Shown: positions 11,253 to 64,000, counted from the stretch's first letter. The stretch is DNA of 64,000 nt from Kiritimatiellia bacterium (GCA_045627705.1 JAZQOE010000124.1:17865-81864); one strand, 5' to 3'. Numbers and translations are program-made. Notes: generated by a model from the sequence alone, not told the origin.

Positions 11253-14200
11253 TTATCGGATGAAGATAAGCGTGCCGGGATTGACGGTTTCGCTCTCGTA
11301 GCAGCCGAGGTCGACGATGTCTTCCCTGGCGCCGGCGCGGCCCTTCCAGATACGGGGCGAGCCATCCAGGTCGATCGTCGAGAGCACGTTTTCGTTGTTG
11401 CCCGCGTCGATGGCGAGGCTGTTCGAGCGCAAGTGCGCGTCGAAGGCGGGATCGCTCCAGAGGACCGACGTGTTCTTGAGACCGGGATTCATGAGCATTA
11501 CGTTCGCGCTGCTGTTGGTCTCGTAGCCGCGGCCTTCCTCGATGTTCCAGAGAATGGTGTCATAGAGGTACAGGTGCGTGCCGGGCTCGTGAATCATGGC
11601 GCCGTCGGGCGGGATGAACGAGAGGATGCCGTCGCAGATGATCGAATTGTAGAATCGCGGGAAGATGTAGCGGCCGTTGTAGCCGCCGGTGTTCCCGACG
11701 AAGGTGCAATTGCGGATGTGCGGGTAGGAGGCATACCCGTGGAAGACGCCGGCGGGGGTGTAGTTGCCCGCGAAGAGGCAGTCGTCGAAGGTGCAGGTCG
11801 GCGGATTCTTGTTGTCGTTGTTGAAGTAGTTGATTCCGAAGACCGCCCCTTCGCGGCCGCCGAGGAACTTGCAGCGGCGGACATTCAGCGAGCCACCGTT
11901 GCGTCCGAAGAGGGCCGAGGCGCGATAGGCGTCGCTGAGCTGGTTGTTGGACTGGGTGACGGCGTTGTTGCGGAATGTGCAGTCTTCGAGGGTCACGTAG
12001 ATGTTCACTTCCATGCCGCCGAAGACGGTCGCGTTGTCGCTGTCGTTGTCCGCAAAGAGACAGTTCTTCGCGGTGAACACCTGCTGGTTGTTCAGCACCT
12101 GCTTTTCGAGGTAGATGGCGGAGTGACGGACCATGTTCGTGAAGACGCAGTCGATTGCGGTCACATCGGCGTTGTCGCGCTGGGCGATGCCGCCGACGGC
12201 CGCCTTGTTGTTTACGGACTGCGTGAAGACCGAGTTGGTCACCACTGCCGTGGCCGATACGACATGGAGGGCCATCGAGCGGGTGTCGCGGAAGGAGAGG
12301 TTCGCGATGCGGACCGCTTCGGTTCCGGTTACTGACACCAGTGTATCGGCCGTATTGTCGCCGGTGAGGATGCAGCCTTCCGCCGCGGAGGTCGTGTCGC
12401 CATCGGCTGAGCAACCGATGAGGTCGATGCCCGCGGCATTGAGCGGGAAGGATTCCTGTGCGGTCGTGTAGTTGCCGGGGAGGAGACGGACTTCATCGCC
12501 GACCGCGAGATTCGAGATCGCGAAGGTCGCGGTGCGGAGCGGATCGTCCAGGGCGCCAGTCGCGGCGTCGGAGCCATCCTTCGGATCGACGTACAGGTAG
12601 CCGGGGTGTGCGATGACGGTGAGGATGATGGTGTCGGTGCCGGTTTCCTTGAAGATGAAGCCGCCGCCGATCGTCACCTCGATCGTGTTGATGCCGTTGC
12701 CGCCGGTGACGGTGAGGCTGCCGGACGAGGCATGCTCGTCAACATCGATGTAGGCATTGCCGTTCCATGCGGCCGAGCTGGTGCCGGTCTCGAACGGGCC
12801 GTTCACGACGATCGGCAGGCGGGTCGTGGCGAGGATGCCCTGCTCGAACAGGGAAACCGTGAACCCGCGGGTCGCGCCCTGGCGGAGGAAGAACCTGGTG
12901 TCGCCACCGATTGTCACGAGGTTCGACGACGGGAAGACGTCGATCGCGAACGGCGCGATGCCTTCGGAGGTCCCGGACTCGGAGAGGACCAGGCGAGTGA
13001 TGGTCTCGGCGCAATCCGAGGCGACAGTGACAGGCAGATCGACTGGGCCGGCGCCATCGGGGATCGTCAGCGTCTCTGGGCCGGAGAGACCTTCGCCGTA
13101 TTCGATAGCGACGGTGACGGGTCCGCTGGCGGCGGGGGAGACGGAGACCTTGGTCGTGTAGGTGCTGCCCTTGAACACGTAGAGGGCGCCAGGCACTGGA
13201 ATCTGGAAGGCCGGCACGGGCGAAGCGTGGAAGGTCGATTCGTAGCAGCCGAGGTCGGCGGTTTCGATGGCGTCGCCGTCGTTGTCGGCGATGCGGGCGT
13301 TGCCCGCGAGGTCAATCTTGGTGCTCGCCACGGAGTTTACGCCGGCGTCAATCGCGGGCGAATACGGGCGGGGACGCGCGTCGAAGGCGGGATCATCCCA
13401 GGATACATCGCAGTTTTCAATCCACGGATTGTCCGTCGATACTCCATAGCTCGCCTGTTCGTTGTATCCGTTGCCGAGATCGGTGTTCCAGAGGATGACG
13501 TTCTGGAGGCGGAGCCTCGTGGCATCGTCGTTCATGTCGGACGAAGAGTGCGTGAGTGCGCCAACGTCGCAGAGGATGCAGTTGCGCAGGTAGGTGTCGC
13601 AGACATATCCGGTGAAACCGCCGCCGCAGCGGATGAACGTGCAGTTGTCGATGAGCCAGTTGGTGGTGTAGCCATTGATGATGTGGTGCGTGACGGGGTT
13701 GTCCACGAAGAGCGAATCCTGGACGCTGCAGGAAGTGCTGGAGCTCGTGCCGAAGAGGGCGCGGCCGGTATTGCCGAAGAAGCGGCAGCGGGCGAGATGC
13801 GCGGAACTCCAATTTCCCCATGCGCCCCAGATGTAGATGCAGGCGGCGGCCTGGCCATCGTGCAGCTTCTGGCTCAAGGCGCTGTTCGTGGCGAAGAGCG
13901 TGTCGTCCACCCTGATGTCGAAGCGCGAACCCGAAGGGGCCGCGATCGCGCCGTAGGAATTGGAGTTGCCGTTGAAGGCGCAGTTCGTCGCGTTGAATGT
14001 CGCGTTGTTGTTCTCGCTGCACCAGACGGTGCCGATTCGGCGGATGGAGAGGAACTCGCATCCGGCGGCATTCGCGATGCCGTTGTTGCTGATCTGGATT
14101 GCGCCGGCGGCGTTGTAGTTTTCGACCGACTGCGTGAAGAGGATGTTTTCGAGACTGGCTTCGGCGGCGCTGACATCGACCAACGGGCCTGTGGTGTCGC

Positions 14201-16742
14201 GCAGGTGGAGTCCACGGATGGAAGAGACCGCGTTGCCGTCCGCGAAGGTGAAGAGTGACTGGGCCTCGTTGCCGCCATCGACCACGCGATCGGTACGGAG
14301 GGAGGTGCCGGAGGCGTCCCAGTCGAGGATGCTGACACCATTTGCCAGGCTAATCGGGAAGACTTCGCCGTTGGCCGCGGAGTAGATGCCCTCGCCGACA
14401 TAGACCGTGCCGCCGATTGAATCGACTTCGGCGAGCGCGCGGGTGATGGAGCGGAATGGCGCTTCGGGGCGGCCCGTTCCGGTGGAGTCGTCGCCAAGGG
14501 CGGAGACGAAGACGTCCGACCAGCGGGTCGAGGTGATGTTGGCGACGGCGCTATCGGTTAGGCCGGCGTTGTTCATCACGGTGAGGGTGACTTGGCCGGG
14601 GGTGGTGACCCTCGCGGGGGAGACCGTCATCTGGTAGATTCCGCTTTCGCCGCCGAGGGAACCGTTATCGATCATTTCGGGCGTGACAAGAGTGCCTTCG
14701 ACGCTGTCGAGCATGATCTCGATATCCTTTGCGATCGCGGTCGGGGTCTCGACGGAGTAGGTGATCGTATCGACGAAGCTGTTGATTTCTTCCTCGTTGA
14801 GGGCACGTTCGCGGACCCACAGGACGTTCGTGACAACGCACGACGATTCGGGAGCCGTGAAGGAAATGTTCCTGGGCGGGTTGAGGCTGTCGTAGAAGAT
14901 CCAGGCGGAATCGGAGATCGAACCAGGATCCGAGGAGGTCGTGAACTGGTATTCGGAACTGCCGGTGAAAACGGGAAGTCCGGCGACATTGAGCGTGGAC
15001 GACGCCGTGTAGTCCCCGCTGCCGGTGACTGGATCGACGAGGGAGAAGGAATAGGGCGAGAACTGATAGGTCAGGTCGTCGAAGTAGTTGCCGTCGGCAT
15101 CGGTGATGCGCAGCTGCATGTAGTCGCCGCCGCCGCCTTCCTGGAGCTTGATGGTGATCGAATTCAGACCGGGGTAGAGCCTGCCTTCGGAAACATATTC
15201 GCCACCGGATCCGCCATTGGACACCTGCAGGATTCCGTTGTTCCAGACGCGGATGCCGTCGTCGTTGTAGTGGCGGAACCAGACTTTACGCTCGACCTTG
15301 TCGGGCATGTTGATGTAGATGTGCCAATACTTGATGTAGTCTCCGCGGTCGGGGGTGGGACTCCAGCGTCCGCTTTCGTCGGGGCAGTCCATTTCTGTCC
15401 AGACAAGGCTGCCGCTTGTGGGTGTCGCCCCGAGGACGCCATCGTAAACGAGGCCGTCGTAGGGGTACTGGTGCGCCTGGCCGCCGAAATTAGCGAGCTG
15501 GTCGCCATCCACGCCGCCAGTAGCACCGGAGGCGATCCAATCGTCGTTGAAGTTCGCGCCGAGGTGGAGGAGGCGCTTGAAGTAGCTGTGGGGAAGAGGG
15601 GTGGCGGCATTGCCCATGCCGATTTCCGAAGCAGCGAAGCCGATCGCCGTGACATCGGCCGTGACGGCCGTCACATTGCCGGCGTTGTTGACGACGCTCG
15701 CCGTGACCTTGGTCGTTCCAAGCGCGGAAATGGAAGACGGCGTGACGCTCATCGCGAATACTCCGAGCGGATCGCCGTAGGACGCGATGACATCCAGGGC
15801 GGAAAGTTTGCGGGGCGTATCGCCCTTGTTCAGCATGAGCGTGATGTCGCGCGTGGTGACTGTCGGCGTCGCGGTCGTGTAGGCGATCGAGCCATTGACC
15901 GACACTGGTTCGGCGTCTGTCTCCCCCGTGCGGAACCAGGCGGTGAAAATCACGTCGCCATCGGTGGGCGGCGCAGGGAAATCGATGGTCTCGGCGGGGA
16001 TCGTCCCTGCGATGTATCCATTCCATTTGTTTGCGTCGGGCTGGGCTTCGCCGATGGTGATCTGGTACTGGGTCGCTCCGAAAACGACCGGCATTTCCGC
16101 GATTTCCACCGCATTCGTACCGGTCATGGACGTGTTGCCGGTGATGGGGTTGCGGAGCGCCAGGTTCTCGGCATGGTGCCCAATGATTTCAATTTCGAGG
16201 TAGCCGGTGTAGCCATTGTCCTGCGGCCCGAAATTGATTCGGATTGCCTTTGCCGCGGCGAAGATGAAGCCATCGTCGGGGTTGGCGAACTTGGCGAAGC
16301 AATTGGCGGAGTTGCCGTCGTATGCGAGGGCGCTGTCCGGGATCGTCTCCCAGGATTCATCGCCCTTCAACGCCTCGATCGAGACAATGTTGATTCCATC
16401 GCGTCCGCTGTCGTTCCACTGCGAGTAGATGTTGATGCCGGAAATGGCGCATAAGACATCGAATTCGTAGGTCAGCGAACCATTGTTGCCGATCGTATAG
16501 CGTTCGGGATTGCTGCTGCCGTACAGGCCATCGGTCAGGCGGTCTGTTCCACCAGTGCCTTCGGCTCCGGCGCTGCCGTTGGCCACGGCCGTCGGGGTTT
16601 TGCCCAATATCAGATTGTCTGCGGCCGGGGTGAAACCGCCGGACGAGAGCGTTGCCCCGGTTGTCCAGACATTTGCCGCGGACGCGCAAGCGGCTGAAAG
16701 CGCCGCGGCCGCGAATAAACGAGCGATAGAACGTAACGACAT
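11253..16742 (-). CDS. giant secreted beta-helix protein, paralog 1 (1829 aa). Signal peptide, discoidin-like N-domain, PA14-like domain, Ig-like modules, two right-handed beta-helix modules each ending in DLGCYE, and a C-terminal ...PGTLIFIR tail.
   Basis: Signal peptide MSLRSIARLFAAAALSAACASA. PA14-like segment LLHLGANFNDD...NDDGIRVWNNGIL...IKLQEGGGGDYMQL. Beta-helix modules begin with YVDPKDGSDAATGALDDPLRTATFAI (DUF1565-like). Choice-of-anchor-Q-like motifs DPAFDARPRPYSPAIDAG...DLGCYE. The terminus reads VDLGCYESETVNPGTLIFIR. Confidence 0.8.
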   Translation of the reverse strand: MSLRSIARLFAAAALSAACASAANVWTTGATLSSGGFTPAADNLILGKTPTAVANGSAGAEGTGGTDRLTDGLYGSSNPERYTIGNNGSLTYEFDVLCAISGINIYSQWNDSGRDGINIVSIEALKGDESWETIPDSALAYDGNSANCFAKFANPDDGFIFAAAKAIRINFGPQDNGYTGYLEIEIIGHHAENLALRNPITGNTSMTGTNAVEIAEMPVVFGATQYQITIGEAQPDANKWNGYIAGTIPAETIDFPAPPTDGDVIFTAWFRTGETDAEPVSVNGSIAYTTATPTVTTRDITLMLNKGDTPRKLSALDVIASYGDPLGVFAMSVTPSSISALGTTKVTASVVNNAGNVTAVTADVTAIGFAASEIGMGNAATPLPHSYFKRLLHLGANFNDDWIASGATGGVDGDQLANFGGQAHQYPYDGLVYDGVLGATPTSGSLVWTEMDCPDESGRWSPTPDRGDYIKYWHIYINMPDKVERKVWFRHYNDDGIRVWNNGILQVSNGGSGGEYVSEGRLYPGLNSITIKLQEGGGGDYMQLRITDADGNYFDDLTYQFSPYSFSLVDPVTGSGDYTASSTLNVAGLPVFTGSSEYQFTTSSDPGSISDSAWIFYDSLNPPRNISFTAPESSCVVTNVLWVRERALNEEEINSFVDTITYSVETPTAIAKDIEIMLDSVEGTLVTPEMIDNGSLGGESGIYQMTVSPARVTTPGQVTLTVMNNAGLTDSAVANITSTRWSDVFVSALGDDSTGTGRPEAPFRSITRALAEVDSIGGTVYVGEGIYSAANGEVFPISLANGVSILDWDASGTSLRTDRVVDGGNEAQSLFTFADGNAVSSIRGLHLRDTTGPLVDVSAAEASLENILFTQSVENYNAAGAIQISNNGIANAAGCEFLSIRRIGTVWCSENNNATFNATNCAFNGNSNSYGAIAAPSGSRFDIRVDDTLFATNSALSQKLHDGQAAACIYIWGAWGNWSSAHLARCRFFGNTGRALFGTSSSTSCSVQDSLFVDNPVTHHIINGYTTNWLIDNCTFIRCGGGFTGYVCDTYLRNCILCDVGALTHSSSDMNDDATRLRLQNVILWNTDLGNGYNEQASYGVSTDNPWIENCDVSWDDPAFDARPRPYSPAIDAGVNSVASTKIDLAGNARIADNDGDAIETADLGCYESTFHASPVPAFQIPVPGALYVFKGSTYTTKVSVSPAASGPVTVAIEYGEGLSGPETLTIPDGAGPVDLPVTVASDCAETITRLVLSESGTSEGIAPFAIDVFPSSNLVTIGGDTRFFLRQGATRGFTVSLFEQGILATTRLPIVVNGPFETGTSSAAWNGNAYIDVDEHASSGSLTVTGGNGINTIEVTIGGGFIFKETGTDTIILTVIAHPGYLYVDPKDGSDAATGALDDPLRTATFAISNLAVGDEVRLLPGNYTTAQESFPLNAAGIDLIGCSADGDTTSAAEGCILTGDNTADTLVSVTGTEAVRIANLSFRDTRSMALHVVSATAVVTNSVFTQSVNNKAAVGGIAQRDNADVTAIDCVFTNMVRHSAIYLEKQVLNNQQVFTAKNCLFADNDSDNATVFGGMEVNIYVTLEDCTFRNNAVTQSNNQLSDAYRASALFGRNGGSLNVRRCKFLGGREGAVFGINYFNNDNKNPPTCTFDDCLFAGNYTPAGVFHGYASYPHIRNCTFVGNTGGYNGRYIFPRFYNSIICDGILSFIPPDGAMIHEPGTHLYLYDTILWNIEEGRGYETNSSANVMLMNPGLKNTSVLWSDPAFDAHLRSNSLAIDAGNNENVLSTIDLDGSPRIWKGRAGAREDIVDLGCYESETVNPGTLIFIR

Positions 16743-16814: not shown

Positions 16815-16928
16815 AAAATTCGCTTTGGGTTTGTCAAACGAACATCGGAAGTGCTATCATGACAAACTCTTTGAGATCAGCCGGCGTGCTTCTCGCCGGC
16901 CACTGAACCGCCTATCGAGGAAATAACC

Positions 16929-19193
16929 ATGGACGACACTGCCGCGACACCGAATGCAACCACGCAAGACCTTGAATCCGCATTTCTGGAGGCAATCGCC
17001 AAGACCCCGATACCGGTCGATGAATGCTTCGCGCAACTGAAGGCGATCGCCGCCCAGAAGCCAGATGTCGCGGGAAAATGCATCATCCTCCTTCGCGACC
17101 AGTTGATCGAGTCCGGTCTTGCCGAACCTCTCGCCGAGCTTTACACGATGTGGTCCTGCTCGGCTGGCGACCGTCCGGCCGCGAAGGATTGCCTTGCGAA
17201 TCTCAAGAAAGTCACGCGCGACCGCCTCTGGAACGCCATCGCGGATTCCTGCGCCTTCGGTGCGCCGAAGGTGGATGTCTCGGAGTCGATGCGCCGCTTC
17301 AATCTTCTCCGGGCGTGCAAGCCGGGCGTGACCTGCCTCGACAAGACATGGGGCGTCGGCATAATCAGGAAGATGGACGACTTCTACAAGCGCATGACCA
17401 TCGACTTCGCTTCGAAGAAGAACAACGTTATGCCCTTTGCGATCGCGGCCGAGGCGATTTCGCTTCCCTCGCCGTCGCACATTCTCGTGCAAGTCCACAA
17501 CGACGCCGCCGGCTATGCCGCGAAGGTCAAGGATCATCCCGGGCAGGTCGTTCGCGACGCACTTGCCAGCATGGGGCAGATGACCCTCGCCCGCCTCGAG
17601 ATTTTCCTCACCGAAAACAAGATCGTCTCCAACTGGAAGTCCTTCTGGGACAAGGCCCGCAAGGAACTCAAGGACGACCCGTGCGTCGAGATTCCCGCCA
17701 AGCGCAACGATCCGCTGGTGATTCACGAGGTCGCCCCGCAGATTGGCGATGGCGCATGGTTCCAGGCGCTCGGCGCGACGCTCGACATCGAAAAGATCCT
17801 CGAGCAGATTCTCAAGCTGGAATCCGAGACCGCAGGCAAGCAGCTTTCCGGCTTCGAGAAGGAAGTCGTCGATGGCCGTCTCGCCTTCGCGCTCAAGGGC
17901 GCGCGAAACGCGGACCATGCGCTTTACGCCCGCCTGGCGATTGTCGCCGGCCGGCTTGGCCTCGAGAATCCGTCCGTCGCCGAAACGCGCGCCCAGCTTT
18001 GGGCGGACGACAACTACATCGCCGCCGGCGAAAAGCTTTCCTCCCGCGATGTCGCGCATCTCGTGGCGTTCCTTCTCGCCGATGGCGACGAAGCGGCATG
18101 CAAGCTTCTCGGCTCGATCGAGAAGATGAACTATGCGATGGCGTCCGAAGTGCTCAACCAGCTCAAGGAGCGCGGTGCCGACGATCCCGCATACTGCAGG
18201 CTCCGCGACACCGTCTGGAGCATCCTCTCGCGCTCCAATCCCCCTGCGATCATCCTGGTATGGGTGCTCCGCAACCTTTGGAGCCTCCGCGACAAGAAGA
18301 CCCTTGAAACCGTCAACGGCTGGAGGCTTCCGTCGAACTATGTGCTGCTTGGCCATGCGCTTGCGGTCTCCGAGAATCCGAATCTCACGGGCGAACTGCT
18401 CCACATGCGCAACACGATCGACAACCTTCTCTCGCCAGAGGTGAAGAAGGATGCACCCGCCGAATCGAAGAGCGCGGTCCGCGACTGGTTCAGGACCATC
18501 TTCGTGTCGCTCGCCGAAAACGAGCAGGAGGCGATTTTCGCGCATGTCCGCGGGTCGGATGCGTGGGAACCGGCGATGCAGCGCGGCATGATCGGCCGCA
18601 TGATCAAGGCGAACGAGAATCTCAAGGCGAACAAGGTCGCGAGCGAGGATGCCGCGGCAAGCCAGGCTTTGGCCGGACGCTGGACATCGCTTCGTTCCCG
18701 CAAGGAGCGCGAGATGGCGCTCGACCATCTCGTCAAGGTCGAGATACCCGAAAACGTCAAGGCGATCGAATACGGCCGTTCCCTCGGCGACTTGCGCGAG
18801 AACTTCGAGTACCAGTCCGCGAAGGACACGGAGCGCGTGCTCCACGCCCGCCGCGAAAGCTGGGAAGAGGATCTCCGCAATGTCCGCGGCACAGATTTCG
18901 CGGAAGTCGTTCCGGAGGTCGTCGGCATGGGCGCCCGCGTCACGCTCCGCTTCGAGGATGGTTCGACGCGCGTCTGCAGCGTCCTCGGCGAGTGGGACCA
19001 CGACGAAGCCCTCGCGATCTACTCCAACCTCAGCGGTCTCGCAAAGAGCATCGAGGGCAGGAAGGCCGGCGACGCGGCCGTCATTCCGACCGAGGATGGC
19101 GAGAAGGCCGTGACGATCGTGGCCGTCGAGCCGCTCGACGCGACGGTGCGCGCATGGATTGTTTCCGAGCCCGCCGCGACGGCCGCGGAATAA
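16929..19193 (+). CDS. large (754 aa) protein with a C-terminal GreA/GreB-like transcript cleavage factor domain fused to a ~600-aa N-terminal domain of unknown function
   Basis: C-terminal SLGDLRENFEYQSAKDTERVLHARRESWEEDL (GreA GDLsENAEY.AAKe motif) followed by ARVTLRFEDGSTRVCSVLGEWDHDEALAIYSNLSGLAKSIEGRKAGDAAVIPTEDGEKAVTIVAVEP, an FKBP-like Gre C-domain. Confidence 0.55.
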   Translation: MDDTAATPNATTQDLESAFLEAIAKTPIPVDECFAQLKAIAAQKPDVAGKCIILLRDQLIESGLAEPLAELYTMWSCSAGDRPAAKDCLANLKKVTRDRLWNAIADSCAFGAPKVDVSESMRRFNLLRACKPGVTCLDKTWGVGIIRKMDDFYKRMTIDFASKKNNVMPFAIAAEAISLPSPSHILVQVHNDAAGYAAKVKDHPGQVVRDALASMGQMTLARLEIFLTENKIVSNWKSFWDKARKELKDDPCVEIPAKRNDPLVIHEVAPQIGDGAWFQALGATLDIEKILEQILKLESETAGKQLSGFEKEVVDGRLAFALKGARNADHALYARLAIVAGRLGLENPSVAETRAQLWADDNYIAAGEKLSSRDVAHLVAFLLADGDEAACKLLGSIEKMNYAMASEVLNQLKERGADDPAYCRLRDTVWSILSRSNPPAIILVWVLRNLWSLRDKKTLETVNGWRLPSNYVLLGHALAVSENPNLTGELLHMRNTIDNLLSPEVKKDAPAESKSAVRDWFRTIFVSLAENEQEAIFAHVRGSDAWEPAMQRGMIGRMIKANENLKANKVASEDAAASQALAGRWTSLRSRKEREMALDHLVKVEIPENVKAIEYGRSLGDLRENFEYQSAKDTERVLHARRESWEEDLRNVRGTDFAEVVPEVVGMGARVTLRFEDGSTRVCSVLGEWDHDEALAIYSNLSGLAKSIEGRKAGDAAVIPTEDGEKAVTIVAVEPLDATVRAWIVSEPAATAAE

Positions 19194-19236
19194 CCCATTT
19201 CCTTTCACAGCTTCCGTATTCCCGCGTGTACCTTGA

Positions 19237-20163
19237 ATGCCGAATGTCCGAAATAGACGCAACCGCCGCATCTGGCGCTGCCGCGATTTCGAGTTGCATC
19301 TCGATGATGGCCCATTCCTGATGGGCATCGTCAATGCGACGCCCGACTCGTTCCATGCGGCGTCGCGCGGGGTGACGGCGAACGCCGCCGTTTCGCTTGG
19401 CGTTCGCCTTGTGTGCGAAGGCGCGGACATCATCGATGTCGGCGGGGAATCGACCCGTCCCGGCGCGCGGCACATATCGGAAGCGGAAGAAACAAGGCGT
19501 GTCGTCCCGGTCATTGCCGGCCTTCGCGAGCAAGTCGATCTCCCGATTTCCATCGATACCAGCCATGCGTCCGTGGCGCGCGCCGCGATCGAAGCTGGCG
19601 CGTCGATCGTGAACGACGTTTCCGCCGGCGCCGATCCCGAAATGGCGGAAGTCGTACGCGAATCAGGCGCGGGCTGGATACTCATGCGGTCGTGCGTACC
19701 GCCCGGCACCCCGGGCAAACCATGCGACGGCGACTTCGCCGAGGATTGCGCGCACTGCGTGGCATGCGATGCGGCGGAGTATCTTTCCGCCCGTGCCAAT
19801 GCAGCGCTTGCCGCTGGCGTCGAACGGGGCCGCATCGCGCTTGATCCTGGTGTCGGGTTCACGAATTCCGCCGAGATGGACATCCATCTCATCGCGGCTA
19901 TCGCAAAGCTTGCGAAGCTTGGATATCCCGTTCTGGCCGGGGTTTCGCGCAAGCGCTTCATCGCCGGAATCGCGGGAGATGGCGCGGCGGCGGAGGATCG
20001 TCTTGCCGGCAGCATCGCCGCCGTTCTCGCGTGCGCGCGAAGGGGTGCGCACGTGCTGCGCGTGCACGACGTGCGCGAGACGCGCCAGGCGCTGGCCGTT
20101 GACCGCGCGGTTGCCGCCGCTGAAAAAACGGCGCGCCGTTTTTCCGGGAAGGAGGCGTGTTGA
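19237..20163 (+). CDS. folP: dihydropteroate synthase
   Basis: LMGIVNATPDSFHAAS (the ILNVTPDSFSDGG motif). ADIIDVGGESTRPG. ISIDTSHASVARAAIEAGASIVNDVSAG. GVGFTNS...VSRKRFI. Confidence 0.85.
   Translation: MPNVRNRRNRRIWRCRDFELHLDDGPFLMGIVNATPDSFHAASRGVTANAAVSLGVRLVCEGADIIDVGGESTRPGARHISEAEETRRVVPVIAGLREQVDLPISIDTSHASVARAAIEAGASIVNDVSAGADPEMAEVVRESGAGWILMRSCVPPGTPGKPCDGDFAEDCAHCVACDAAEYLSARANAALAAGVERGRIALDPGVGFTNSAEMDIHLIAAIAKLAKLGYPVLAGVSRKRFIAGIAGDGAAAEDRLAGSIAAVLACARRGAHVLRVHDVRETRQALAVDRAVAAAEKTARRFSGKEAC
20123..20143. repeat. perfect 21-bp palindrome aaaaaacggcgcgccgttttt at the 3' end of folP, 22 bp before the cdaA start
   Basis: Exact self-complementary copy of the dispersed motif. Encodes EKTARRF in folP. 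Confidence 0.6.
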
Positions 20164-20165
20164 CC

Positions 20166-20993
20166 ATGCATGGTTTTATTGGAACCTTTCTTGGCGCTGC
20201 CCTGCAAATCCTGCTGATAACAGTGGCCGTCCACCAGTTGATCAGGCTCTTCCGCGGCACGCGCAGCGCACAGATATTGCTGGGTGTGGTGATAGTGCTG
20301 ATCCCCGTGCTGTTCTTCACGCAATGGCTGCACCTCGACGTCCTCGCATGGGTGTTCAAGTGGGTGCTGCTCTATCTCGTCTTTGCGCCACTGGTGATAT
20401 TCCAGCCCGAACTCCGACGCGCCCTGGCCCGTCTCGGCAGGGGAGGATTCGCGCAGGAGAGCAAGGAGAAGCGCCAGGACCGCGTGGAGCTGCTTGCCTC
20501 TGTGGCGGAGCGTCTTTCGTCGCGCCATCACGGCGCGATTATCGCGATCGAGCGCAACGACCGGCTTGGCGAATACGAATCCAACGCCACGATCATCGAC
20601 TCACCGTTGCAGCCCGACCTGCTGGTCAGCATCTTCTTCCCCAACGCCCCGCTCCATGATGGCGGCGTCATCGTCAAGGGCGACCGCATCCACGCCGCCC
20701 GATGCATCTTCCCGCTAGCCGAAAGCAACGACCCGCACCTCGTCCGCCATGGCACCCGCCACCGCGCGGCGCTCGGCCTCTGTGAGGCGACCGATGCGCT
20801 TGTGCTCGTGGTTTCCGAGGAGACGGGGGAGATCCGCATCTACTGCGAGAAGCATGCGACAAAGCCGCTCGATTCGCACAACCTGCGCCGTTGCCTGGCC
20901 GCGACGCTTCCCGCGGAGGTCACGGAGGCATGGCGCTTCCTGCTGTCGCTTGGCGTTGACGATCCGGCCGCGCTCGGGAGGGACATGCCATGA
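20166..20993 (+). CDS. cdaA: diadenylate cyclase CdaA (DisA_N domain with N-terminal TM helices)
   Basis: Three N-terminal TM helices. DisA_N motifs LHDGGVIVKGDRI and GTRHRAALGLCEATDALVLVVSEETGEI. RBS GGAGG 11 nt upstream of ATG 20166. The listed ORF starts at GTG 20157. Confidence 0.8.
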   Translation: MHGFIGTFLGAALQILLITVAVHQLIRLFRGTRSAQILLGVVIVLIPVLFFTQWLHLDVLAWVFKWVLLYLVFAPLVIFQPELRRALARLGRGGFAQESKEKRQDRVELLASVAERLSSRHHGAIIAIERNDRLGEYESNATIIDSPLQPDLLVSIFFPNAPLHDGGVIVKGDRIHAARCIFPLAESNDPHLVRHGTRHRAALGLCEATDALVLVVSEETGEIRIYCEKHATKPLDSHNLRRCLAATLPAEVTEAWRFLLSLGVDDPAALGRDMP

Positions 20994-31345: not shown

Positions 31346-34300
31346 ATGTCGTTCAATAAATCCCGCTCGTGTCGGTTGTTCGCCGGCGCAGTTGCCGCCT
31401 TGGCGGCGTTGTTGCCATCGGTTTCCCGTGGCGATGTCGCATTGTCGGGCCAGTTGCCATCCGGATACTGGACAGACTTGCTTCACCTCGGCTCAAATTT
31501 CAATACCGATGATTTGGTCCAGGGTGGCGACGATTGGCTTGCGGGGTGGGGTGGCCAGGCTAACCAGCACCCTTATCCCGGGCAGAAGTACACCGATCTG
31601 CGGACTTCCGGCTCCACGGCTACTCCGGGTTCCCTTGTCTGGACACCGTCTTCTTTCGATGGTGGCATCTGGCAGCCAAGCAACCGCGATTCATACACGA
31701 AATTCTGGCATGTCTATGTCATCGTGCCGGGGACCAGTCCCCGCGAGGTGTATTTTTATACTCGGCAGGATGACGATGTCCGCGTCTGGAACAATGGCAT
31801 CCTGGCTTTCGAAAGCATCGGCTGGGATAACAATGCCGAGAAGGGGCCTTTCCCCGCAGTATTGGTTCCCGGGCAAAATTCGATAACCATCAGGCTCGAC
31901 GAGGGCACCGGCGGCGACTACATGGCTATCCGTGTAACCGACCGCAATAACAACCCATACAGCGATCTCACCTATTCGCTCGTCCCTAGTCCGGAGTTTT
32001 GCGATCCGCTCGCAGGCATTTCGGGGTTTACCTCGACCAACGCCGCCAAGGTTGCGTTCCTGCCTTCTTTGCCGACTGCCACCGAATACCAGTTGTCGCT
32101 TTCCAATGACCCCGCCGAGCTGGATACCAACGGCTGGCTCGCTTATACCGAGGGCTTGCAGCCTGATTCTATCATCGACTTCCCCAAGCCGGCCACAAGC
32201 CTGGCTTCGATTGCCATCTATGCCTGGTTCCGCACCAATGGGGACGACTCCACCATTGAGTCCGTCTCAAATTCAATCCTCTACAATGTCACCCCTCCCG
32301 TGGCCGTGACAAAGGATATCGTTGTCCCAATCAACCCCGCGGCCGGCCGCGAAATCCTGCCCATCGAAATCGATGCCGGTTCACATGACGACTTTGTCGG
32401 CGTGCGCAGCATGGCGGTCTCCCCCGGCAAGATCACCGGCAGCGGACCCGTCACTCTCACCGTTTACAATTCCCTCGGCGTCGCCGGTACCGCCACGGCC
32501 CAAATTACCGCCGTTCCCGCCGAAGGCCCGCTTCCCCACGGCAATTGGACGACAATGCTCCACCTGGGTACCATTTTCAACCAGGATGACCTTTCGAATT
32601 CCGGCGGCATCGATGCCGACCATCTCGAATCGTATGGCGGACAGGCCAACCAGAAGCCTTACCATGGCCTCACATACGATGGTCTTCCAACGGCCCTGCA
32701 TGGTACCGCTCCGCTCACTTGGACGGCTTCCTACGATTCCGATGGCCACTGGGAGCCTTCCGGCCGCGACAACTATATCAAGTATTGGCATGTCTATCTC
32801 AATGTCCCCGGCCCGACAAACCGTACCGCGCGCTTCAATTTCCTCCATGACGATAACGTCCGCGCCTGGAATAACGGTTCGCTTTTCTACTCCCGAAATT
32901 ACGATGGCGCATGGCATTCCGTCGATACTCCTCTCGTTCCCGGCTTGAACTCCATTACTTTCAAGCTTGAAGAGGGCGGCGGCGGCGACTATTTCGAGGT
33001 CAACATGACCGACACCGCCGGCAATTTCATGGATGATGTCACCTTCCAGCTTGATCCTACTGAGTTCAAGATCGAGAACCCGATTACGGGCAGCGTCGAT
33101 TTCCTCGGCACAAACGCCCTCCGCGTGGCCAAGATGCCACGCGATCCCGGCGCGACTGCCTACCAGTTAACGCTCAGCGGCGATGAGGCTTCGATCGATT
33201 CCGACAATTGGCTCGAATACTTCCCCGGCATGACTCCTTCCGATTTGTTCTCTTTCGCCGAGCCAGCCGCCGACGGTCCGATTACGATCCACGCCTGGAT
33301 GCGTTCCTCCATCGGTACGAACCACTACGAGGGCCCGTCGATCACCTACACCCACGACGTCCCGATCGTCAAAGTGAAGCCGGCCGACCTCGACATCGAC
33401 CCCGTCAACGGCACCACCGTGCTGCCTTCGGATATCGATGATGGCACTTCCGATCCTGTCTCCGGGATCTATTCGCTCTCGGTCGTGCCACCTGTAATCT
33501 ACGAACCCACGGATGTCACGCTCGTCGCGATGAACAACGCCGGCCTCGTTTCCACCGCCACGACCTCGGTCGCCCCGTCGTTCTGGGCGGCTCTCGATGT
33601 CGTCGGCGACGATACCGCATACTCCACCCTCGAAGCCAGCTTCCAGGCCGTCGCCTACGGTTCCCCCGCGGCGACTGCCACGGTGTTCTGCTCGTGGAAT
33701 TTCGGCGATGGTTCCGCCGCCGTCGAAGGCCAGGACCTTTTCTCCACCACGCACCTCTATGATCGCCCCGGCGCATTCGATGTCTCGCTGACGATGACCA
33801 GCGCCCTCGGCGATGTCTCGGTAACCAATATCGTCAAGGCGATCAAGATTCTTGGCGACCGCTTTGTCGCTTCCGCCGATGCCGGCGCAGGCGTTTATCC
33901 GTACACCGACGAAACCCTCGCCAGCTCCGACATCGCCGCCGTAGTCGCCGCCGCGCAGCAGGCTTCCGCCGCCGGCGCCGAAGGCGTGGTCGTCGAGGTC
34001 GGGCCGGGCAGCTACGATCTTACGACGCAGATCGACCTCGTCGAGCCTATCACCCTCCTCGGCGTCGCCGGCCCCGCGGACACGCATCTGCGGCAGACCG
34101 TCGATCAGCTGTGCGTTGTCACCGTCTCCACGAATGCCACCGTCGCCGGTCTCACGCTCCACGGCAAGTTTATCTCCAATGACAACCGCGTTGGCGGCGG
34201 CATCCGCATGACTTCCGGCGTCGCCACCAATATCGTCGTCACCGATTGTACGGGCGGTGGCCACGCCATAGGCCCGCTGTATGGCTCCGCCTATCTCGAT

Positions 34301-36392: not shown

Positions 36393-36439
36393 CGGAGCGC
36401 CGCGAAATGCCCCCGCATTTTCGCGGCGCGCCGTTTTTT
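36393..36439 (+). terminator. rho-independent terminator of giant gene 2 (built from the dispersed palindromic motif)
   Basis: aaaaaaacggagcgccgcgaaatgc-cccc-gcattttcgcggcgcgccg followed by tttttt. Confidence 0.7.
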
Positions 36440-42877: not shown

Positions 42878-42904
42878 CAATCCATCGCCAACCTAAAATA
42901 ATCG

Positions 42905-42947
42905 GTGCGCCGCGGAATGCCCAACATTCCGCGGCGCACTGTTTTCG
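42905..42947 (+). terminator. rho-independent terminator of giant gene 3
   Basis: gtgcgccgcggaatg-cccaa-cattccgcggcgcac followed by tgttttcg. Confidence 0.7.
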
Positions 42948-59377: not shown

Positions 59378-61078
59378 ATGAAATCCATCATGGCTTGCAT
59401 AACCAGCCTGTGTCTCGCTTCCGCGCCATGCGTCGCGCTTTCCGCCGACGCCTTCGCTACGATGCGAACGAACATGGCGCATTACCTGGTTGACCAGCTT
59501 CTCAACGCCCCGATTGCGCCAGGTGATTCCGATGCGCTGCATGTGCCGCCTTTCGACGGCGATGGCGTCTGGAACGATGTTGACTATGCGTCACGGCGTT
59601 CGAGCACATGGCCGGCGAAGCTTCATCTGCGTCGGATGTACGGACTCGCCGCGCAGGGTGCCCCCGAATCGCGCTCGGCAGCGATCGAGGCGCTCGCCGC
59701 ATGGGTACGCCTCGATCCGCAAAGCGACAACTGGTGGAACCAGGAGATTGGCACTCCGAAATCGCTATGCGAAACGATGATCCTCCTTGGCGACGACCTG
59801 CCCGCCGAACTGCGCGATGCGGTCCGTCCGATCCTCGATCGTTCAAAGCCGGGCCGTACCGGACAAAACCGCACGTGGCTCGCGGGCATACACGCGATGA
59901 AGGGAATGATCTACGGCGACGCCAACGCGGTAGCGGCGGCGCACAGGACGCTCCTCGACGAACTGAAGATCGTCGGTCTTGGGACCGAAGGCCTGCAGGA
60001 TGATTTCACCTTCCACCAGCATGGCCCCCAGATGCAGCTTGGCACATACGGGCTTTCGTTCTTCCGCGAGATGACGAAGTGGGCGACTGTCTTCGACGGC
60101 ACGCCATACGCATTCCCATCCGACAAGCTTGCACTTCTCGAGCACTTCTTCACCGATGCGCTTCAATGGCCGGTTTATTGCGGCACAATGGATTTCTCGG
60201 CGTGCGGGCGCCAGATAGTCGGCGATTACCCGGCAACGAAAGCGCATTCGGTATTCGCCGGCGCCGTCGCCCTCAAGCGCATCGGATGCCTTGCCGATTT
60301 CGATCCCGACAAATTTGGAACGCTCGCCGGTTCACGATACTTCCCGAGCAGCGCCTACCTTGTGCACCGTGCGCCAGAATTCTTCTTCGCCTTGCGAATG
60401 TGCGCGCCCGATATCGTCGGCGCGGAAACCGTAAACAGCGAGAACCTTCTTGGACGCTACACTGCCGATGGCGCCACCTACTTCCGCACTGCGGGAAACG
60501 GATTCATCGATGCCATCCGAATGTGGGACTGGAGCTTTATTCCAGGCACGACGGAGGCAATCAAGAAGAAGCCGGATCTCAAGGTCCATGGCAGACGCAA
60601 CCAGGATGGCGGAAGCGCGACTGGCGCGGTCGAAGACGGGATTGCAACGGCCGAGATGAGTTTCCGCGCGTCGGAATTCGTCGCGGACAAACGATGGCGC
60701 TGCGCAGGCAACGGCTTTGAAGCCACGGGGTCTGGCATTTCTTCGGAAAGCGTCTGGCGCATTGTCACCACCATCGACCAGCGGTTGGTGCAAGGGACCG
60801 TAACCATCGTGGGCGCCGACGGCATTCGCATGCCGCTTGCCGATGGCGATCAAGTCATCCCGATGCCCGCGCACATCGAGCATGCGGGAATCGCCTACGA
60901 CATCGCTTCCGCCGATGGCGAACTACATGTCGGGCAATCCATGCGCCGTGGCAGCTGGCGCCGCATCAATGCCGCGGCATCAAATGAGCCCGTCGAGGGC
61001 AAGATGCTCCTCATCTATATCGATCATGGCGTTCGTCCGAGCGGCGCAGGTTATAGATATTCCGTGACAGCCAAATAA
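59378..61078 (+). CDS. polysaccharide lyase family 8-like protein (chondroitin AC / hyaluronate / xanthan lyase family) with signal peptide
   Basis: Signal peptide MKSIMACITSLCLASAPCVALSA. (alpha/alpha) toroid-like N-half with NRTWLAGIHAMKG and FHQHGPQMQLGTYGLSF, reminiscent of the PL8 catalytic region. Beta-sheet C-half. Assignment is tentative. Confidence 0.45.
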   Translation: MKSIMACITSLCLASAPCVALSADAFATMRTNMAHYLVDQLLNAPIAPGDSDALHVPPFDGDGVWNDVDYASRRSSTWPAKLHLRRMYGLAAQGAPESRSAAIEALAAWVRLDPQSDNWWNQEIGTPKSLCETMILLGDDLPAELRDAVRPILDRSKPGRTGQNRTWLAGIHAMKGMIYGDANAVAAAHRTLLDELKIVGLGTEGLQDDFTFHQHGPQMQLGTYGLSFFREMTKWATVFDGTPYAFPSDKLALLEHFFTDALQWPVYCGTMDFSACGRQIVGDYPATKAHSVFAGAVALKRIGCLADFDPDKFGTLAGSRYFPSSAYLVHRAPEFFFALRMCAPDIVGAETVNSENLLGRYTADGATYFRTAGNGFIDAIRMWDWSFIPGTTEAIKKKPDLKVHGRRNQDGGSATGAVEDGIATAEMSFRASEFVADKRWRCAGNGFEATGSGISSESVWRIVTTIDQRLVQGTVTIVGADGIRMPLADGDQVIPMPAHIEHAGIAYDIASADGELHVGQSMRRGSWRRINAAASNEPVEGKMLLIYIDHGVRPSGAGYRYSVTAK

Positions 61079-61095
61079 CTTGCCTCTCATTTGCA

Positions 61096-61168: not shown

Positions 61169-64000
61169 ATGAATGTGTCGAGGTCGTTGATGGCCGCCCT
61201 TGTCGCGGGCGCGCTTCTTTCCATCCCGTCCATTTCGCATGCCGAACTGGGCGACTATCAAGAATTCACCGACAAGGAAAACTGGTCGGCAACCGTCAGT
61301 GGCAACGGCGACGGCCAAGGTGCCGCCGCGATCATCAACGGCAATGAGACGGACATGTGGCAGTGCGACTGGCGAGGGGACGCATGGTTCTGCATCGACC
61401 TCGGCTCGCGCCGCACCATCCGCGCCTTCAAATATCGTCCGCGCCAGGCAGACCACAGCATCAAGGACTACAAGCTCTGGGTGCTCGATGCGCCTGTCAC
61501 ATCATACGACGATGTCAACGCGCTTCCCAATTCCCATGCTCCCGCATCGGCTGGTGTCCTGCCGTTCACCAACGACCCGACATACATCGAAGTTGAGTCC
61601 CCGCAGGTCGGCCGCTATGTCGTAATGCAGTCGTTCACGACCTACGAGCACAGCGCCGGTTGCCGCGAGTTCTGGCTATACGGCGAAAACGCCGCCACGC
61701 CCTGCTTCGTCTTTTGGCCGGCATCGAAGCGCGTCTATGCCATGGAATCGGCCGACTTCGCGCTTTCGGCGACAGACCATGACACCGGTTCGCTTTCCGC
61801 CGATTTCTCGCTGAGCGATCCCAATGGCGCAATCGCATCCGTCGTCCTGGGCAATGCGGACATTACCGCCGGCGGCGCGGATGTCGCCACGTTCACGGCT
61901 GGGGTCTGCGACCAGGGTACGCTTGCGGTAACGGCCTCGGCCAATATCGGCACGGCCACAATGACGCTCTCCGAAGGCTCGTCGTCGTTCGGCGCCATCT
62001 CGCGTTCCGCGCAGATTGAATCCGTCGCGCGCGTGGTGCGTCTCGTCGGTAGCCCGAACATCGGCGTGGGAATCGGCTCGTCCGTGACGCGCACCATCCA
62101 GATTGTCGATTCCGAACTCGCCGCCCCCGGCGCAATCACGCTTTCGGCCGGCGCGCCCTCAAATCCTTCGGCGTCTGTCTCCGGTGATGCCTCGATCGCC
62201 GATGGAGCATTCGCCTCCTCCGGCTCCATCATCCTTACCGGCGAAAGCGAAGGCTCCGCCACGGTACTGCTTACCCTCGGCAACGACTTCGTCTTCGAGG
62301 AAACCGGCACCTCCACGCTTTCCCTCATGGTCGCGACCCTCGGCGACACGATCTACGTCGCGCCCAACGGAGACGATTCGAACATCGGCACCGAGAACCT
62401 TCCCCTTCGCTCCATCTCCGCCGCCGCGACTCTCGCAATGGACAGCGGCGCCGACATCGTGATCGCCGCCGGCCTTTACGACGCCGCCCACGGCGAAACA
62501 TTCCCGATCCTTCCTCCGAACGGAATCGAAATCCGCGGCGTCGCGGGTGCGACGCGCACCCCCGCCGATTCGACCATCATCGACTGCGGTGGCACTGGCG
62601 GCTGCTTCTCCTTCCCGGCAGTCCATTCCGCCACGGCCGGACTCCTCTCCAACCTCGTGATCACCAACGCCGCGCACTTCGCCGTGAAGGGCAACCTCTG
62701 GTACGGCACGATGGAGAACTGCATTGTCGATGGCGTGACCGCCTCCTCTGGCGACGACGCGATCTTCTCGATCGACTCCCTTGACTACAGCACCAGCCTG
62801 CTCTTCACGAACTGCGTCTTCCGCAACGTCACCACCTCGGGCGAGTACTGGATGCGCTTCAGCTACAGGTACGGCCCGATCTCCTTCGCCGACTGCTCCT
62901 TCGAGAACCTCTCGATCACCGGCGGCAATAGTTATACCGCCAAGACTGGACCGATCGTGATGTATTCGACATACTGCAACGGAACGAATGACTCGACTGT
63001 GAAGTTCCTGCGCTGCACATTCGACAACCTCAACGTTTACCGTACCTCGGGCAATTACAGCTCCGACGGCGGATACTTTGAAAACGGCGTGATCAACCCG
63101 TGGGCGAAGACATGGGTGGACCGCTGCGTCTTCCGCCACGCTTCCGCCCCATTCGCCTATTTCGGCGGAAACCGCAACGAGACGCACATCTACAACTCGC
63201 TCTTCTACGACATCGATTGCGGAGAATGGGGCGTTGCGCATGTCTTCTACGGCGCCGAACTCGATGTGCGCAACTGCACCTTCGACCAGGTGAGCACGGT
63301 CTTCCATACCGATGGCAACCACGCCATCACGACCGTCCACAACCTCTCGATCTCTTCCGCTTCGAGGCTGAACTCGATGGACAAGTCCCGCCTCGTGCTC
63401 AAGAGCTGCAATGTCTTCGACACGCCGGTCGCGGACATGTACGACGTGTTCTACGACACTACGTCGAGCGAAAACGTGACATCCTACGCGCCGGACTACG
63501 TCGCCGCGTACGACAGCGCGAACCCCGGCGCCGAGAACTACCGCCTCTGGTCGTACAGCGAACTGATCGATATCGGCGACAATTCCGCCATCAACGGCGA
63601 CTATGCCCTCGACCTCGCCGACAAGCCGCGCGCGTACAGCGCAGCCGGCACGGCGGTCGTCGATCTCGGCGCGTACGAGTCCCGTTTCGGTGCGCCCGAC
63701 ACAGTCTCCTTCTACACGCCTTCGACAATCTTCCATGGGTTCGTCGGTGAATCCGTAACGATTCCAGTAAGCATCAACCCCGCGCCGGAAACCACGACTC
63801 CTGTCCAAGCCGCCGTCGCGCTTGGCGCGGACCTTTCGACCGAGACCCCAACGCTCGCATGGGCCACGGGCACCGAGGTCAACCAGTTGACGGTCACGGC
63901 CGCGGACGCCTTGACGGACGGCGATGGCGAGCGCATGCTGGTCACGGTTTCGGAAAACGGAACGTCGGTCGGCATCGAGCCTCTCGCTGTTGGCGTGTAC
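61169..64000 (+). CDS. giant secreted beta-helix protein, paralog 4 (3'-truncated at window end, >943 aa). Signal peptide, discoidin (F5/8 type C)-like domain, Ig-like and beta-helix modules, and a canonical DLGAYE motif.
   Basis: Absent from the ORF track because no stop lies within the window. The frame is open from ATG 61169 to 64000. Signal peptide MNVSRSLMAALVAGALLSIPSISHA. Discoidin-like IINGNETDMWQ...WFCIDLGSRRTIRAFKYRPRQ...IKDYKLWV. DUF1565-like IYVAPNGDDSNIGTENLPLRSISAA. VVDLGAYESRFGAPDTVSFYTPS. Next module begins as in paralogs 1-3. Confidence 0.75.
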   Translation, partial: MNVSRSLMAALVAGALLSIPSISHAELGDYQEFTDKENWSATVSGNGDGQGAAAIINGNETDMWQCDWRGDAWFCIDLGSRRTIRAFKYRPRQADHSIKDYKLWVLDAPVTSYDDVNALPNSHAPASAGVLPFTNDPTYIEVESPQVGRYVVMQSFTTYEHSAGCREFWLYGENAATPCFVFWPASKRVYAMESADFALSATDHDTGSLSADFSLSDPNGAIASVVLGNADITAGGADVATFTAGVCDQGTLAVTASANIGTATMTLSEGSSSFGAISRSAQIESVARVVRLVGSPNIGVGIGSSVTRTIQIVDSELAAPGAITLSAGAPSNPSASVSGDASIADGAFASSGSIILTGESEGSATVLLTLGNDFVFEETGTSTLSLMVATLGDTIYVAPNGDDSNIGTENLPLRSISAAATLAMDSGADIVIAAGLYDAAHGETFPILPPNGIEIRGVAGATRTPADSTIIDCGGTGGCFSFPAVHSATAGLLSNLVITNAAHFAVKGNLWYGTMENCIVDGVTASSGDDAIFSIDSLDYSTSLLFTNCVFRNVTTSGEYWMRFSYRYGPISFADCSFENLSITGGNSYTAKTGPIVMYSTYCNGTNDSTVKFLRCTFDNLNVYRTSGNYSSDGGYFENGVINPWAKTWVDRCVFRHASAPFAYFGGNRNETHIYNSLFYDIDCGEWGVAHVFYGAELDVRNCTFDQVSTVFHTDGNHAITTVHNLSISSASRLNSMDKSRLVLKSCNVFDTPVADMYDVFYDTTSSENVTSYAPDYVAAYDSANPGAENYRLWSYSELIDIGDNSAINGDYALDLADKPRAYSAAGTAVVDLGAYESRFGAPDTVSFYTPSTIFHGFVGESVTIPVSINPAPETTTPVQAAVALGADLSTETPTLAWATGTEVNQLTVTAADALTDGDGERMLVTVSENGTSVGIEPLAVGVY

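Follow-up and report, generated by a model that had tools for sequence, protein, structure and literature searches.

The locus described here bears on how very large extracellular proteins of Kiritimatiellia are displayed on the cell or released from it, through a short sequence at the end of its giant genes. Bacteria of this class abound in guts, sediments and hypersaline mats, where they degrade polysaccharides. We analysed a 64,000-nucleotide stretch of DNA from a Kiritimatiellia bacterium (PVC group; GCA_045627705.1, JAZQOE010000124.1:17865-81864), referred to here as the window, which carries four giant genes, p1 to p4 (Table 1). Together these genes amount to 19,683 nt, or 31% of the window by our list of open reading frames (ORFs). 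An earlier reading of the same DNA (the original prediction) had described them as a paralogous family of secreted proteins with PA14-like or discoidin-like heads and repeated beta-helix modules, and had put their share of the window, correctly, at about 30%. What it had overlooked is more unusual than anything else in these genes, namely a C-terminal tail of the form G-T-(four hydrophobic residues)-R/K placed at the very end of the protein. We suggest tentatively that this tail is part of a sorting or anchoring signal, and that it probably terminates lectin- or adhesin-type proteins that are exported by the general secretory (Sec) pathway.

A short tail closes all four proteins

All four paralogs end in the tail, which reads PGTLIFIR in p1 and p2, AGTLIFLK in p3 and AGTFIFIK in the full-length p4, and every complete close homologue ends alike (for example GTLLLVR, GTLLMLK, GTILIVR or GTLFILR). 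Among 157 proteins pooled from our searches, nearly all of them the best matches of an exhaustive hidden Markov model (HMM) search, such an end was found in 39. In these 39 tails glycine occupies position -7 in 34, threonine or serine position -6 in 27 and arginine or lysine the last position in 36, with hydrophobic residues from -5 to -2. The tail lies 10-15 residues past the GCYE motif that closes the terminal beta-helix module, and internal modules with the same GCYE end do not carry it. In relatives from Bacteroidota GCYES is followed by a C-terminal domain of about 85 aa of the type IX secretion system (T9SS) kind or by another module, and other relatives have dockerin-like or other C-terminal domains. 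The tail is one alternative in a “choice of anchor” situation.

Further ends were seen among distant relatives of the module. In P0026, P0029, P0051 and P0092 the end is dockerin-like (DVNxDGxINILDLIFVRN...C), and in P0045, P0046, P0050, P0066, P0070 and others the protein closes with a domain whose last residues read ...(F/Y)YR(I/V)xxx. Both kinds of end may be additional alternative anchors of the choice-of-anchor-Q family.

The tail also occurs on proteins of other build. An FG-GAP protein encoded just upstream of P0002, a homologue of p3, ends in AGTLLLVR, and P0006, which has a PA14-like head on an otherwise different body, ends in SGSLFRLR. A scan of metagenome DNA with the back-translated tail pattern GGCACGMTNHTSHTSNTSCGNTAR gave at least 120 matches, of which 80 loci were examined. 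In 42 of the 80 the pattern stood at the very end of a long coding-type ORF; these 42 include 15 complete ORFs of at least 1000 aa, and the N-terminus resembled a signal peptide in 14 of the 18 complete ones. Grouped by BLAST, the tail-ended proteins among the matches listed form at least 13 clusters, all unrelated to p1-p4, and none of these proteins matched the profiles of the PA14-like domain or the beta-helix module. The domains that they carry instead are PATR, LamG, metallophosphoesterase, FGE-sulfatase, PKD, InlB B-repeat, legume-lectin, glycine-rich, FN3 and discoidin. Nine of ten gene calls from the scan were exact members of a public protein collection, in which the only named cluster is from Kiritimatiellia; indeed every tail-bearing protein with a taxonomic name is from this class. 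The motif G[TS]-(four hydrophobic)-[RKQH] was present at none of 55,135 internal positions in about 90 proteins from Kiritimatiellia loci. In the unrelated tail-bearing proteins a hydrophobic strand spans positions -15 to -10 and is followed by a turn, often with proline at -9, which suggests that the tail and the preceding strand would form a terminal hairpin of about 20 residues.

One protein from a Kiritimatiellia metagenome-assembled genome (MAG), of 590 aa and secreted (L027:1119-2891, minus strand), lacks the final basic residue, its last residues being ...DPTLLILL. This could be a degenerate or variant tail.

The tail could not be assigned to a described class of signal. The NCBIfam sorting-domain models gave no match to the C-termini at E<=10. 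A T9SS C-terminal domain is a beta-sandwich of about 80-100 aa, and the window proteins have only 10-15 residues past GCYE. Since the tail has a single R/K and only 4-5 hydrophobic residues, too few to span a membrane, it also falls outside the class of tripartite sorting signals. A literature search returned nothing that links Kiritimatiellia to sorting signals, exosortase, PEP-CTERM, PA14, beta-helix or surface proteins, and a wider one, covering secretion and the cell surface, had no such paper among its top results. To our knowledge, and within the libraries searched, the tail has not been described before.

Lectin-like heads and beta-helix modules

The four proteins share a general plan, an N-terminal head followed by beta-helix repeats, with differences in detail. 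In p1 the signal peptide is followed by a 170-aa N-terminal domain, an immunoglobulin-like (Ig-like) domain, a PA14-like domain, a second Ig-like domain, beta-helix 1, an Ig-like linker, beta-helix 2 and the tail. In p3 the order is signal peptide, PA14-like domain, Ig-like domain, three beta-helix modules separated by Ig-like linkers of about 200 aa, and tail. In p4 it is signal peptide, F5/8 type C (discoidin) domain, Ig-like region, beta-helix 1, linker, beta-helix 2 and tail, the second module and the tail lying beyond the window. The original prediction gave one architecture to all four, with two or three repeats of a ~640-aa module that runs from a DUF1565-like start to a choice-of-anchor-Q-like end. 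This holds for p1, p3 and p4 and fails for p2, in which two (PA14-like + Ig-like) units, 41% identical to each other, are followed by two repeats of a PKD domain and a shorter beta-helix, and then by the tail. The two repeats of p2 are 46% identical over 468 aa, with a period of about 470 aa, and their short beta-helices are similar to the p1 and p3 modules only in the C-terminal half of the latter (28% identity). No DUF1565 match was found in p2 in the Pfam search, and its choice-of-anchor Q score was 24.9 bits against the NCBIfam cut-off of 25.

Pfam PA14 (PF07691) matched neither the whole proteins at E<=0.01 nor the isolated domains at E<=10, and we therefore based the PA14-like assignment in p1-p3 on a profile search of the PDB and on structure. 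The domains matched PDB PA14 domains by profile and, as modelled for the p3 domain, show the PA14 beta-sandwich fold, with domains of Flo1, Flo5 and Epa among the top fold matches. Furthermore, an Asp-Asp pair (D119/D120 of the alignment of PA14-like domains, A1) is invariant in eight copies and falls on the DDG in alignments with the PA14 domains of RsgI3 and Lap. In the Flo, Epa and MpIBP lectins the DD pair of PA14 forms the DcisD motif that binds Ca2+ and sugar, and the invariant pair seen here is consistent with a lectin function. The heads of p1-p3 are a divergent PA14 subfamily that Pfam misses, and the claim of PA14-like domains was right as an assignment of fold and motif. In our searches the combination of a PA14-like head with an Ig-like module was confined to close relatives of Kiritimatiellia type.

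The discoidin-like domains attributed to p1 and p4 fared differently. The domain of p4 is a clear F5/8 type C match. The N-terminal domain of p1, which carries the motifs LTDG, W.D.GRD and ENGY.GY.EIE, gave no Pfam match (p1 and five homologues), no PDB match by phmmer or profile and no BLASTP match, and hhalign returned a probability of 0.1% in comparison with the p4 discoidin domain; a discoidin domain in p1 is accordingly not supported. This domain, to which we assign no family, could have a galactose-binding-like fold.

The beta-helix modules were recognised readily. DUF1565 (PF07602, cut-off 20.3) scored 64 bits in p1, 77 in p3 and 39 in p4, choice-of-anchor Q (NF041518, cut-off 25) scored 41.8 bits in p1, 66.5 in p3 (over three stretches) and 29.9 in full-length p4, and p3 also matched Pfam Beta_helix and Pel9A-like models. 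We aligned 12 modules (two from p1, three from p3, one from p4 and six from homologues). The unit is about 430 aa long, starts with (V)YV(D)P.NG.D...G....P..T...A and ends with ...SPAIDAG...DL.G..R....VDLGCYES; in p1 and p3 an Ig-like linker of about 200 aa follows it and gives the ~640-aa period (module starts at aa 738 and 1376 in p1). Modules within p1 and p3 are 31-48% identical, with 33% between the two of p1, 41% over 640 aa between the first and second of p3 and 48.5% between its second and third. Full-length p4 has two such modules. Conservation across the 12 modules falls mostly on Gly, Asn, Phe and Cys at ladder positions, with no obvious acidic or Ca2+ cluster. NCBIfam NF047854 reached 50-100 bits, far from its cut-off of 380, over about 60-100 of 358 positions in the cap region of p1, p3 and p4.

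An AlphaFold2 model of p3 module 3 is a beta-helix of moderate confidence (predicted local distance difference test score, pLDDT, 63 overall, and good at residues 40-340), as the original prediction had expected. It matches right-handed parallel beta-helices at TM-scores of 0.33-0.44, namely GH87, PL6, AlgE epimerases, GH28, tailspikes, PfbA and PL9. At the level of sequence, PDB matches are limited to the N-terminal cap (residues ~10-105 of the 450-aa module) and are to PL9 rhamnogalacturonan lyase and tailspikes. The Pel9A-like_beta_helix match covers only positions 11-61 of 370, and catalytic residues could not be mapped.

Word-indexed homologue searches returned only 6, 2 and 3 proteins, and the breadth of the family was seen by an exhaustive HMM search with the terminal module, which gave 14,653 library proteins at E<=1e-3, with 173 still matching at E<=1e-30. 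Many of these are very long, reaching ~8000 aa and 21 modules. Multi-module beta-helix/choice-of-anchor-Q proteins are a widespread and already known kind, and the closest relatives with a taxonomic name are all from Kiritimatiellia. We regard p1-p4 as typical lineage-specific giants with lectin heads, which represent a new combination of domains and not a new principle.

What the tail and the architecture may do

It is probable that p1-p4 are surface or secreted proteins of the lectin/adhesin type, in which a head and a rigid stalk are combined with a lineage-specific C-terminal tag. An adhesin or glycan-binding surface role, as had been proposed for the family, is a reasonable and the most economical reading of heads, Ig-like spacers and beta-helix modules. 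The proteins would be exported by Sec, after which the tail and the beta-strand before it would act as a lineage-specific tag by which the protein is passed through the outer membrane or held at it. The long and rigid beta-helix/Ig rod would then hold the N-terminal lectin head away from the cell, and the head, pointing outward, could bind polysaccharide or another surface.

For the tail itself we propose, as a possibility that we place a little below an even chance, that together with the preceding strand and Pro/Gly turn (~20 residues) it is an undescribed class of Kiritimatiellia sorting or anchoring signal, which would direct dozens of giant Sec-exported proteins per genome across the outer membrane or attach them to it. 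Its strict terminal position, the near-invariant glycine and basic end, its independence of architecture and its occurrence where Bacteroidota homologues have the T9SS domain all argue for a signal. Several observations weigh against this picture. Only a minority of tail-bearing proteins have a taxonomic name. No conserved neighbour or candidate sorting enzyme recurs across 48 tail-bearing loci. In the AlphaFold2 model the last 100 residues, including the tail, are unreliable (pLDDT ~25-37), and whether the tail packs on its own domain cannot be read from it. Finally, the beta-helix fold of the proposed stalk is common to many polysaccharide lyases and hydrolases, which leaves room for a catalytic role.

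The tail might instead carry no signal and be the last strand of a small C-terminal capping hairpin that recurs in, and stabilises, numerous beta-rich proteins of the lineage, with export and localisation depending on other features such as type II secretion of the folded protein; we consider this rather unlikely. The fixed spacing of 10-15 aa past GCYE, and the hydrophobic strand and Pro/Gly turn that suggest a hairpin in unrelated proteins, are in keeping with such a strand, and the lack of a recurring sorting enzyme or neighbour, together with the presence of type II secretion/type IV pilus-like genes in the window, also speaks in its favour. However, such specificity of position and such independence of fold would be surprising in a strand of purely structural role: the motif is always terminal, is absent from the internal modules that end in GCYE, keeps Gly at -7 and a near-invariant terminal Arg/Lys, occurs on at least 13 unrelated architectures, nearly all with signal peptides, and takes the place of the T9SS domain of the Bacteroidota homologues.

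A second alternative, the main rival of the lectin/adhesin reading, concerns the body of the proteins. The beta-helices could be lyases or glycosidases, so that p1-p4 would be multi-catalytic depolymerases, with heads that serve as carbohydrate-binding modules and bring the enzyme to its substrate and a tail that exports or tethers it. Members of the Kiritimatiellota in culture specialise in breaking down polysaccharides, sulfated ones among them, and the similarities of the model to GH87, PL6, GH28, PL9, mannuronan epimerases and phage tailspike depolymerases, the cap matches to PL9 rhamnogalacturonan lyase and tailspikes, and the Pel9A-like Pfam matches are all in keeping with an enzyme, as are the PL8 gene that precedes p4 and the GH63-like and SASA esterase genes nearby. 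Since the model matches both enzymes and structural rods, the fold does not settle between the two. Yet the matches to enzyme families are confined to the cap, the TM-scores are low and the adhesin PfbA falls within the same range, the conserved residues are ladder positions and include no obvious acidic or Ca2+ cluster, no catalytic signature could be identified, and two or three near-equivalent modules joined by Ig-like linkers are more stalk-like. We therefore think a catalytic function of the modules unlikely, and retain the lectin-headed stalk with a C-terminal tag as our explanation of these genes.

Gene identity and age of the family

The long ORFs have a negligible probability of being artefacts, whether from high G+C content or from assembly, for although the window is 60% G+C and does hold long spurious ORFs, such as one of 1224 aa at 16857..20531 on the minus strand, p1-p4 have gene-like G+C contents at the codon positions (0.76-0.82 at the third, GC3, and ~0.48 at the second, GC2), significant domain matches, internal repeats at the protein level, terminator hairpins directly past their stop codons, and full-length homologues, 51-73% identical, in independent assemblies. 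The spurious ORF at 16857-20531 contains no domains, is atypical in its codon-position G+C and lies across real genes of the plus strand, namely a GreA-like gene (16929-19193) followed by FolP-like, CdaA-like and YbbR-like ORFs. The boundaries given by the original prediction for the three complete genes and for the open frame of p4 were confirmed by the ORFs, the codon-position G+C and the homologues. Frameshift or assembly errors are excluded for practical purposes because three of the genes match database proteins: p2 is P0005 and p3 is P0001, each 100% identical, on one 86.5-kb NCBI contig, and p4 is the first 943 residues of P0187, encoded on the same contig. At each N-terminus a basic stretch, a hydrophobic stretch and a small-x-small site (for example ...CASAKA|DV or ...SISHA|EL) could be read by eye, and these look like Sec signal peptides, in agreement with the original prediction.

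The four genes are, from their sequences, old paralogs of one family. In the all-vs-all alignment p1 and p3 share 36% identity over ~1500 aa, p4 shares 24-27% with these two, and p2 shares 38-43% in the head region only, which upholds the paralogy. However, p1 is 64.6% identical over its full length to P0158 from a Kiritimatiellia MAG, p3 is 51% identical to P0002 from the same MAG and p4 is 73% identical to P0188. Since p1, p3 and p4 are closer to these orthologs elsewhere (51-73%) than the paralogs are to one another (24-43%), the duplications predate the split of the lineages, and the family cannot be called “expanding” as had been suggested. The related MAG, GCA_050950285.1, holds at least seven members.

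Gene neighbourhood and regulation

The glycosidase, esterase and lyase genes that had been taken, together with the giant genes, as a local glycan capture system are real: a GH63/MGH1-like glycosidase at 27455-29197, a SASA esterase at 46509-48470 on the minus strand and a PL8 lyase at 59378-61078 on the plus strand. They are scattered, however, among housekeeping genes, those between the giant genes including TruB, F420-ligase-like, GreA-like, FolP-/CdaA-like ORFs, FtsK, RimO-like, CarB, RecA, NadE and similar. Because the neighbours are mostly housekeeping genes, we do not regard the locus as a glycan-utilisation operon. Each complete giant gene (p1, p2 and p3) has its own GC-rich hairpin at the 3' side, and a promoter-like site of its own was seen at p1 and at p3. 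The sole adjacent and co-oriented CAZy-type neighbour is the PL8 lyase, which has a signal peptide and ends 90 bp before p4; among the carbohydrate-active neighbours it alone might plausibly share a transcript with one of the family. The upstream regions of the giant genes are only weakly alike, a short GCTTGATTT motif being common to p2 and p3 alone, and the supposed similarity of promoters is therefore slight.

Near-identical GC-rich palindromes, GCGCCGCGRAAT followed by an inverted copy, were found at 11187-11218, 36397-36429, 42903-42941, 43135-43171 and 9643-9654. They lie 3' of p1, p2 and p3 and also near carB, with 11 matches against 4.2 expected, and could be shared terminators or a repetitive extragenic palindromic (REP)-like element. 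An IS200/Y1-transposase-like gene at 52666-53679 on the minus strand might be a REP-associated tyrosine transposase.

The gene just before p2, in the same orientation, encodes a 640-aa protein with an N-terminal membrane anchor (29327-31249, plus strand). This protein was considered as a dedicated partner and rejected, as neither a Pfam match, even at E<=1, nor a homologue in the other loci examined was found. A type II secretion/type IV pilus-like set occupies 2503-8737 on the plus strand, with two proteins that have an N-terminal methylation motif, a weakly T2SS-M-like protein and T2SSE-family ATPases at 6087-7253 and 7145-8737; a prepilin peptidase is encoded separately at 49825-50805 on the plus strand. 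This set could be the export route of the giant proteins.

Table 1. Coordinates of the giant genes, their domains, tails and adjacent hairpins (window positions, except in the last row; aa, position in the protein)
Feature	Position	Strand	Remarks
p1	11253..16742	-	complete gene, 1829 aa; GC3 0.82; full-length ortholog P0158
p1 N-terminal domain, ~170 aa (aa 23-195)	16158..16676	-	kept in P0009, P0010, P0021, P0167
p1 PA14-like domain (aa 376-566)	15045..15617	-	in alignment A1; PDB PA14 profile match; fold matches
p1 beta-helix module 1 (aa 738-1172)	13227..14531	-	DUF1565-type cap to choice-of-anchor Q end ...GCYES
p1 beta-helix module 2 (aa 1376-1821), terminal	11280..12617	-	choice-of-anchor Q; module alignment
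p1 C-terminal tail PGTLIFIR-COOH	11256..11279	-	
GC-rich hairpin just 3' of p1, GCGCCGCGAAAT + inverted copy	11187..11218	-	
p2	31346..36370	+	complete gene, 1674 aa
p2 PA14-like domain a (aa 30-216)	31433..31993	+	alignment A1
p2 PA14-like domain b (aa 392-574)	32519..33067	+	alignment A1
p2 repeat 1, PKD + short beta-helix (aa 753-1215)	33602..34990	+	PKD_4/PKD Pfam matches
p2 repeat 2, PKD + short beta-helix	35021..36343	+	borderline choice-of-anchor Q end
p2 C-terminal tail PGTLIFIR-COOH	36344..36367	+	
Hairpin between p2 and p3, GCGCCGCGAAAT...inverted copy	36397..36429	+	followed by T-run
p3	36542..42877	+	complete gene, 2111 aa
p3 PA14-like domain (aa 26-216)	36617..37189	+	structure modelled
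p3 beta-helix module 1 (aa 390-826)	37709..39019	+	
p3 beta-helix module 2 (aa 1034-1465)	39641..40936	+	DUF1565, Beta_helix, choice_anch_Q matches
p3 beta-helix module 3 (aa 1666-2103), terminal	41537..42850	+	AlphaFold2 model
p3 C-terminal tail AGTLIFLK-COOH	42851..42874	+	
Terminator-like hairpin 3' of p3	42903..42941	+	17-bp stem
p4	61169..64000	+	runs off window end; full protein P0187, 1506 aa
p4 discoidin (F5/8 type C) domain (aa 41-160)	61289..61648	+	Pfam PF00754 42.7 bits, cut-off 28.2
p4 beta-helix module 1 (aa 392-841)	62342..63691	+	DUF1565 match; in module alignment
Further tail sites	L001:9550-9576, L005, L006, L025, L027, L028, L029-L108		

Comparison with known systems

Beta-helix lyases and hydrolases (PL9 Pel9A/rhamnogalacturonan lyase, PL6, GH28, GH87) and tailspikes share the fold and the N-cap motif with the window proteins, but there is no family-level match past the cap and the tandem modular arrangement differs. 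The Leptospira LIC10774/LIC10365 family (NF047854) is similar only in its DUF1565-type cap, and the scores are far below its 380-bit cut-off.

The lectin-headed plan has counterparts in two groups. Fungal Flo/Epa adhesins follow the same logic of head, stalk and C-terminal anchor, are found among the fold matches and have a DD pair at the “DD” position of PA14; they differ in being eukaryotic, with a Ser/Thr-rich stalk and a glycosylphosphatidylinositol (GPI) anchor, and no sequence relation extends past the PA14 core. The repeats-in-toxin (RTX) adhesins of Marinomonas primoryensis (MpIBP) and Marinobacter hydrocarbonoclasticus (Lap) have a PA14 lectin domain on Ig-like (BIg) repeats, lack a Sec signal and are exported by type I secretion with an N-terminal anchor. 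The window proteins, in contrast, have a Sec signal, an N-terminal head, beta-helices and a putative C-terminal tag.

The type of module is shared with the beta-helix/choice-of-anchor-Q giants of Bacteroidota, which are T9SS cargo, and of other phyla. They have the same DUF1565-like start, Asn-ladder helix and ...SPAIDAG...DLxGxxR...VDxGCYE end, and the Bacteroidota relatives are 25-31% identical to the window proteins over ~250 aa. The difference lies in what follows GCYES, which is the ~85-aa T9SS-type domain or another module in Bacteroidota and only 10-15 residues with the tail in the window proteins.

The tail can be compared with the LPXTG, PEP-CTERM, GlyGly-CTERM and MYXO-CTERM signals, which likewise form the very C-terminal end of numerous secreted proteins of one lineage that are otherwise unrelated. 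These tripartite signals consist of a signature motif, a hydrophobic segment of transmembrane length and an Arg cluster, the shortest described being 20 aa (10.1101/2023.06.07.544157). The tail follows the same order of motif (here G-T), hydrophobic stretch and basic end, and both accompany “choice-of-anchor” domains. Unlike these signals, the tail has 4-5 hydrophobic residues and one basic residue and cannot span a membrane. Should it prove to be a sorting signal, its small size would be unusual and it would act with no segment that spans the membrane, as a Kiritimatiellia counterpart of the T9SS domain or of PEP-CTERM. The tail provides a sequence handle by which likely surface or secreted giant proteins can be listed from genomes, and a starting point toward the machinery that exports or anchors them.

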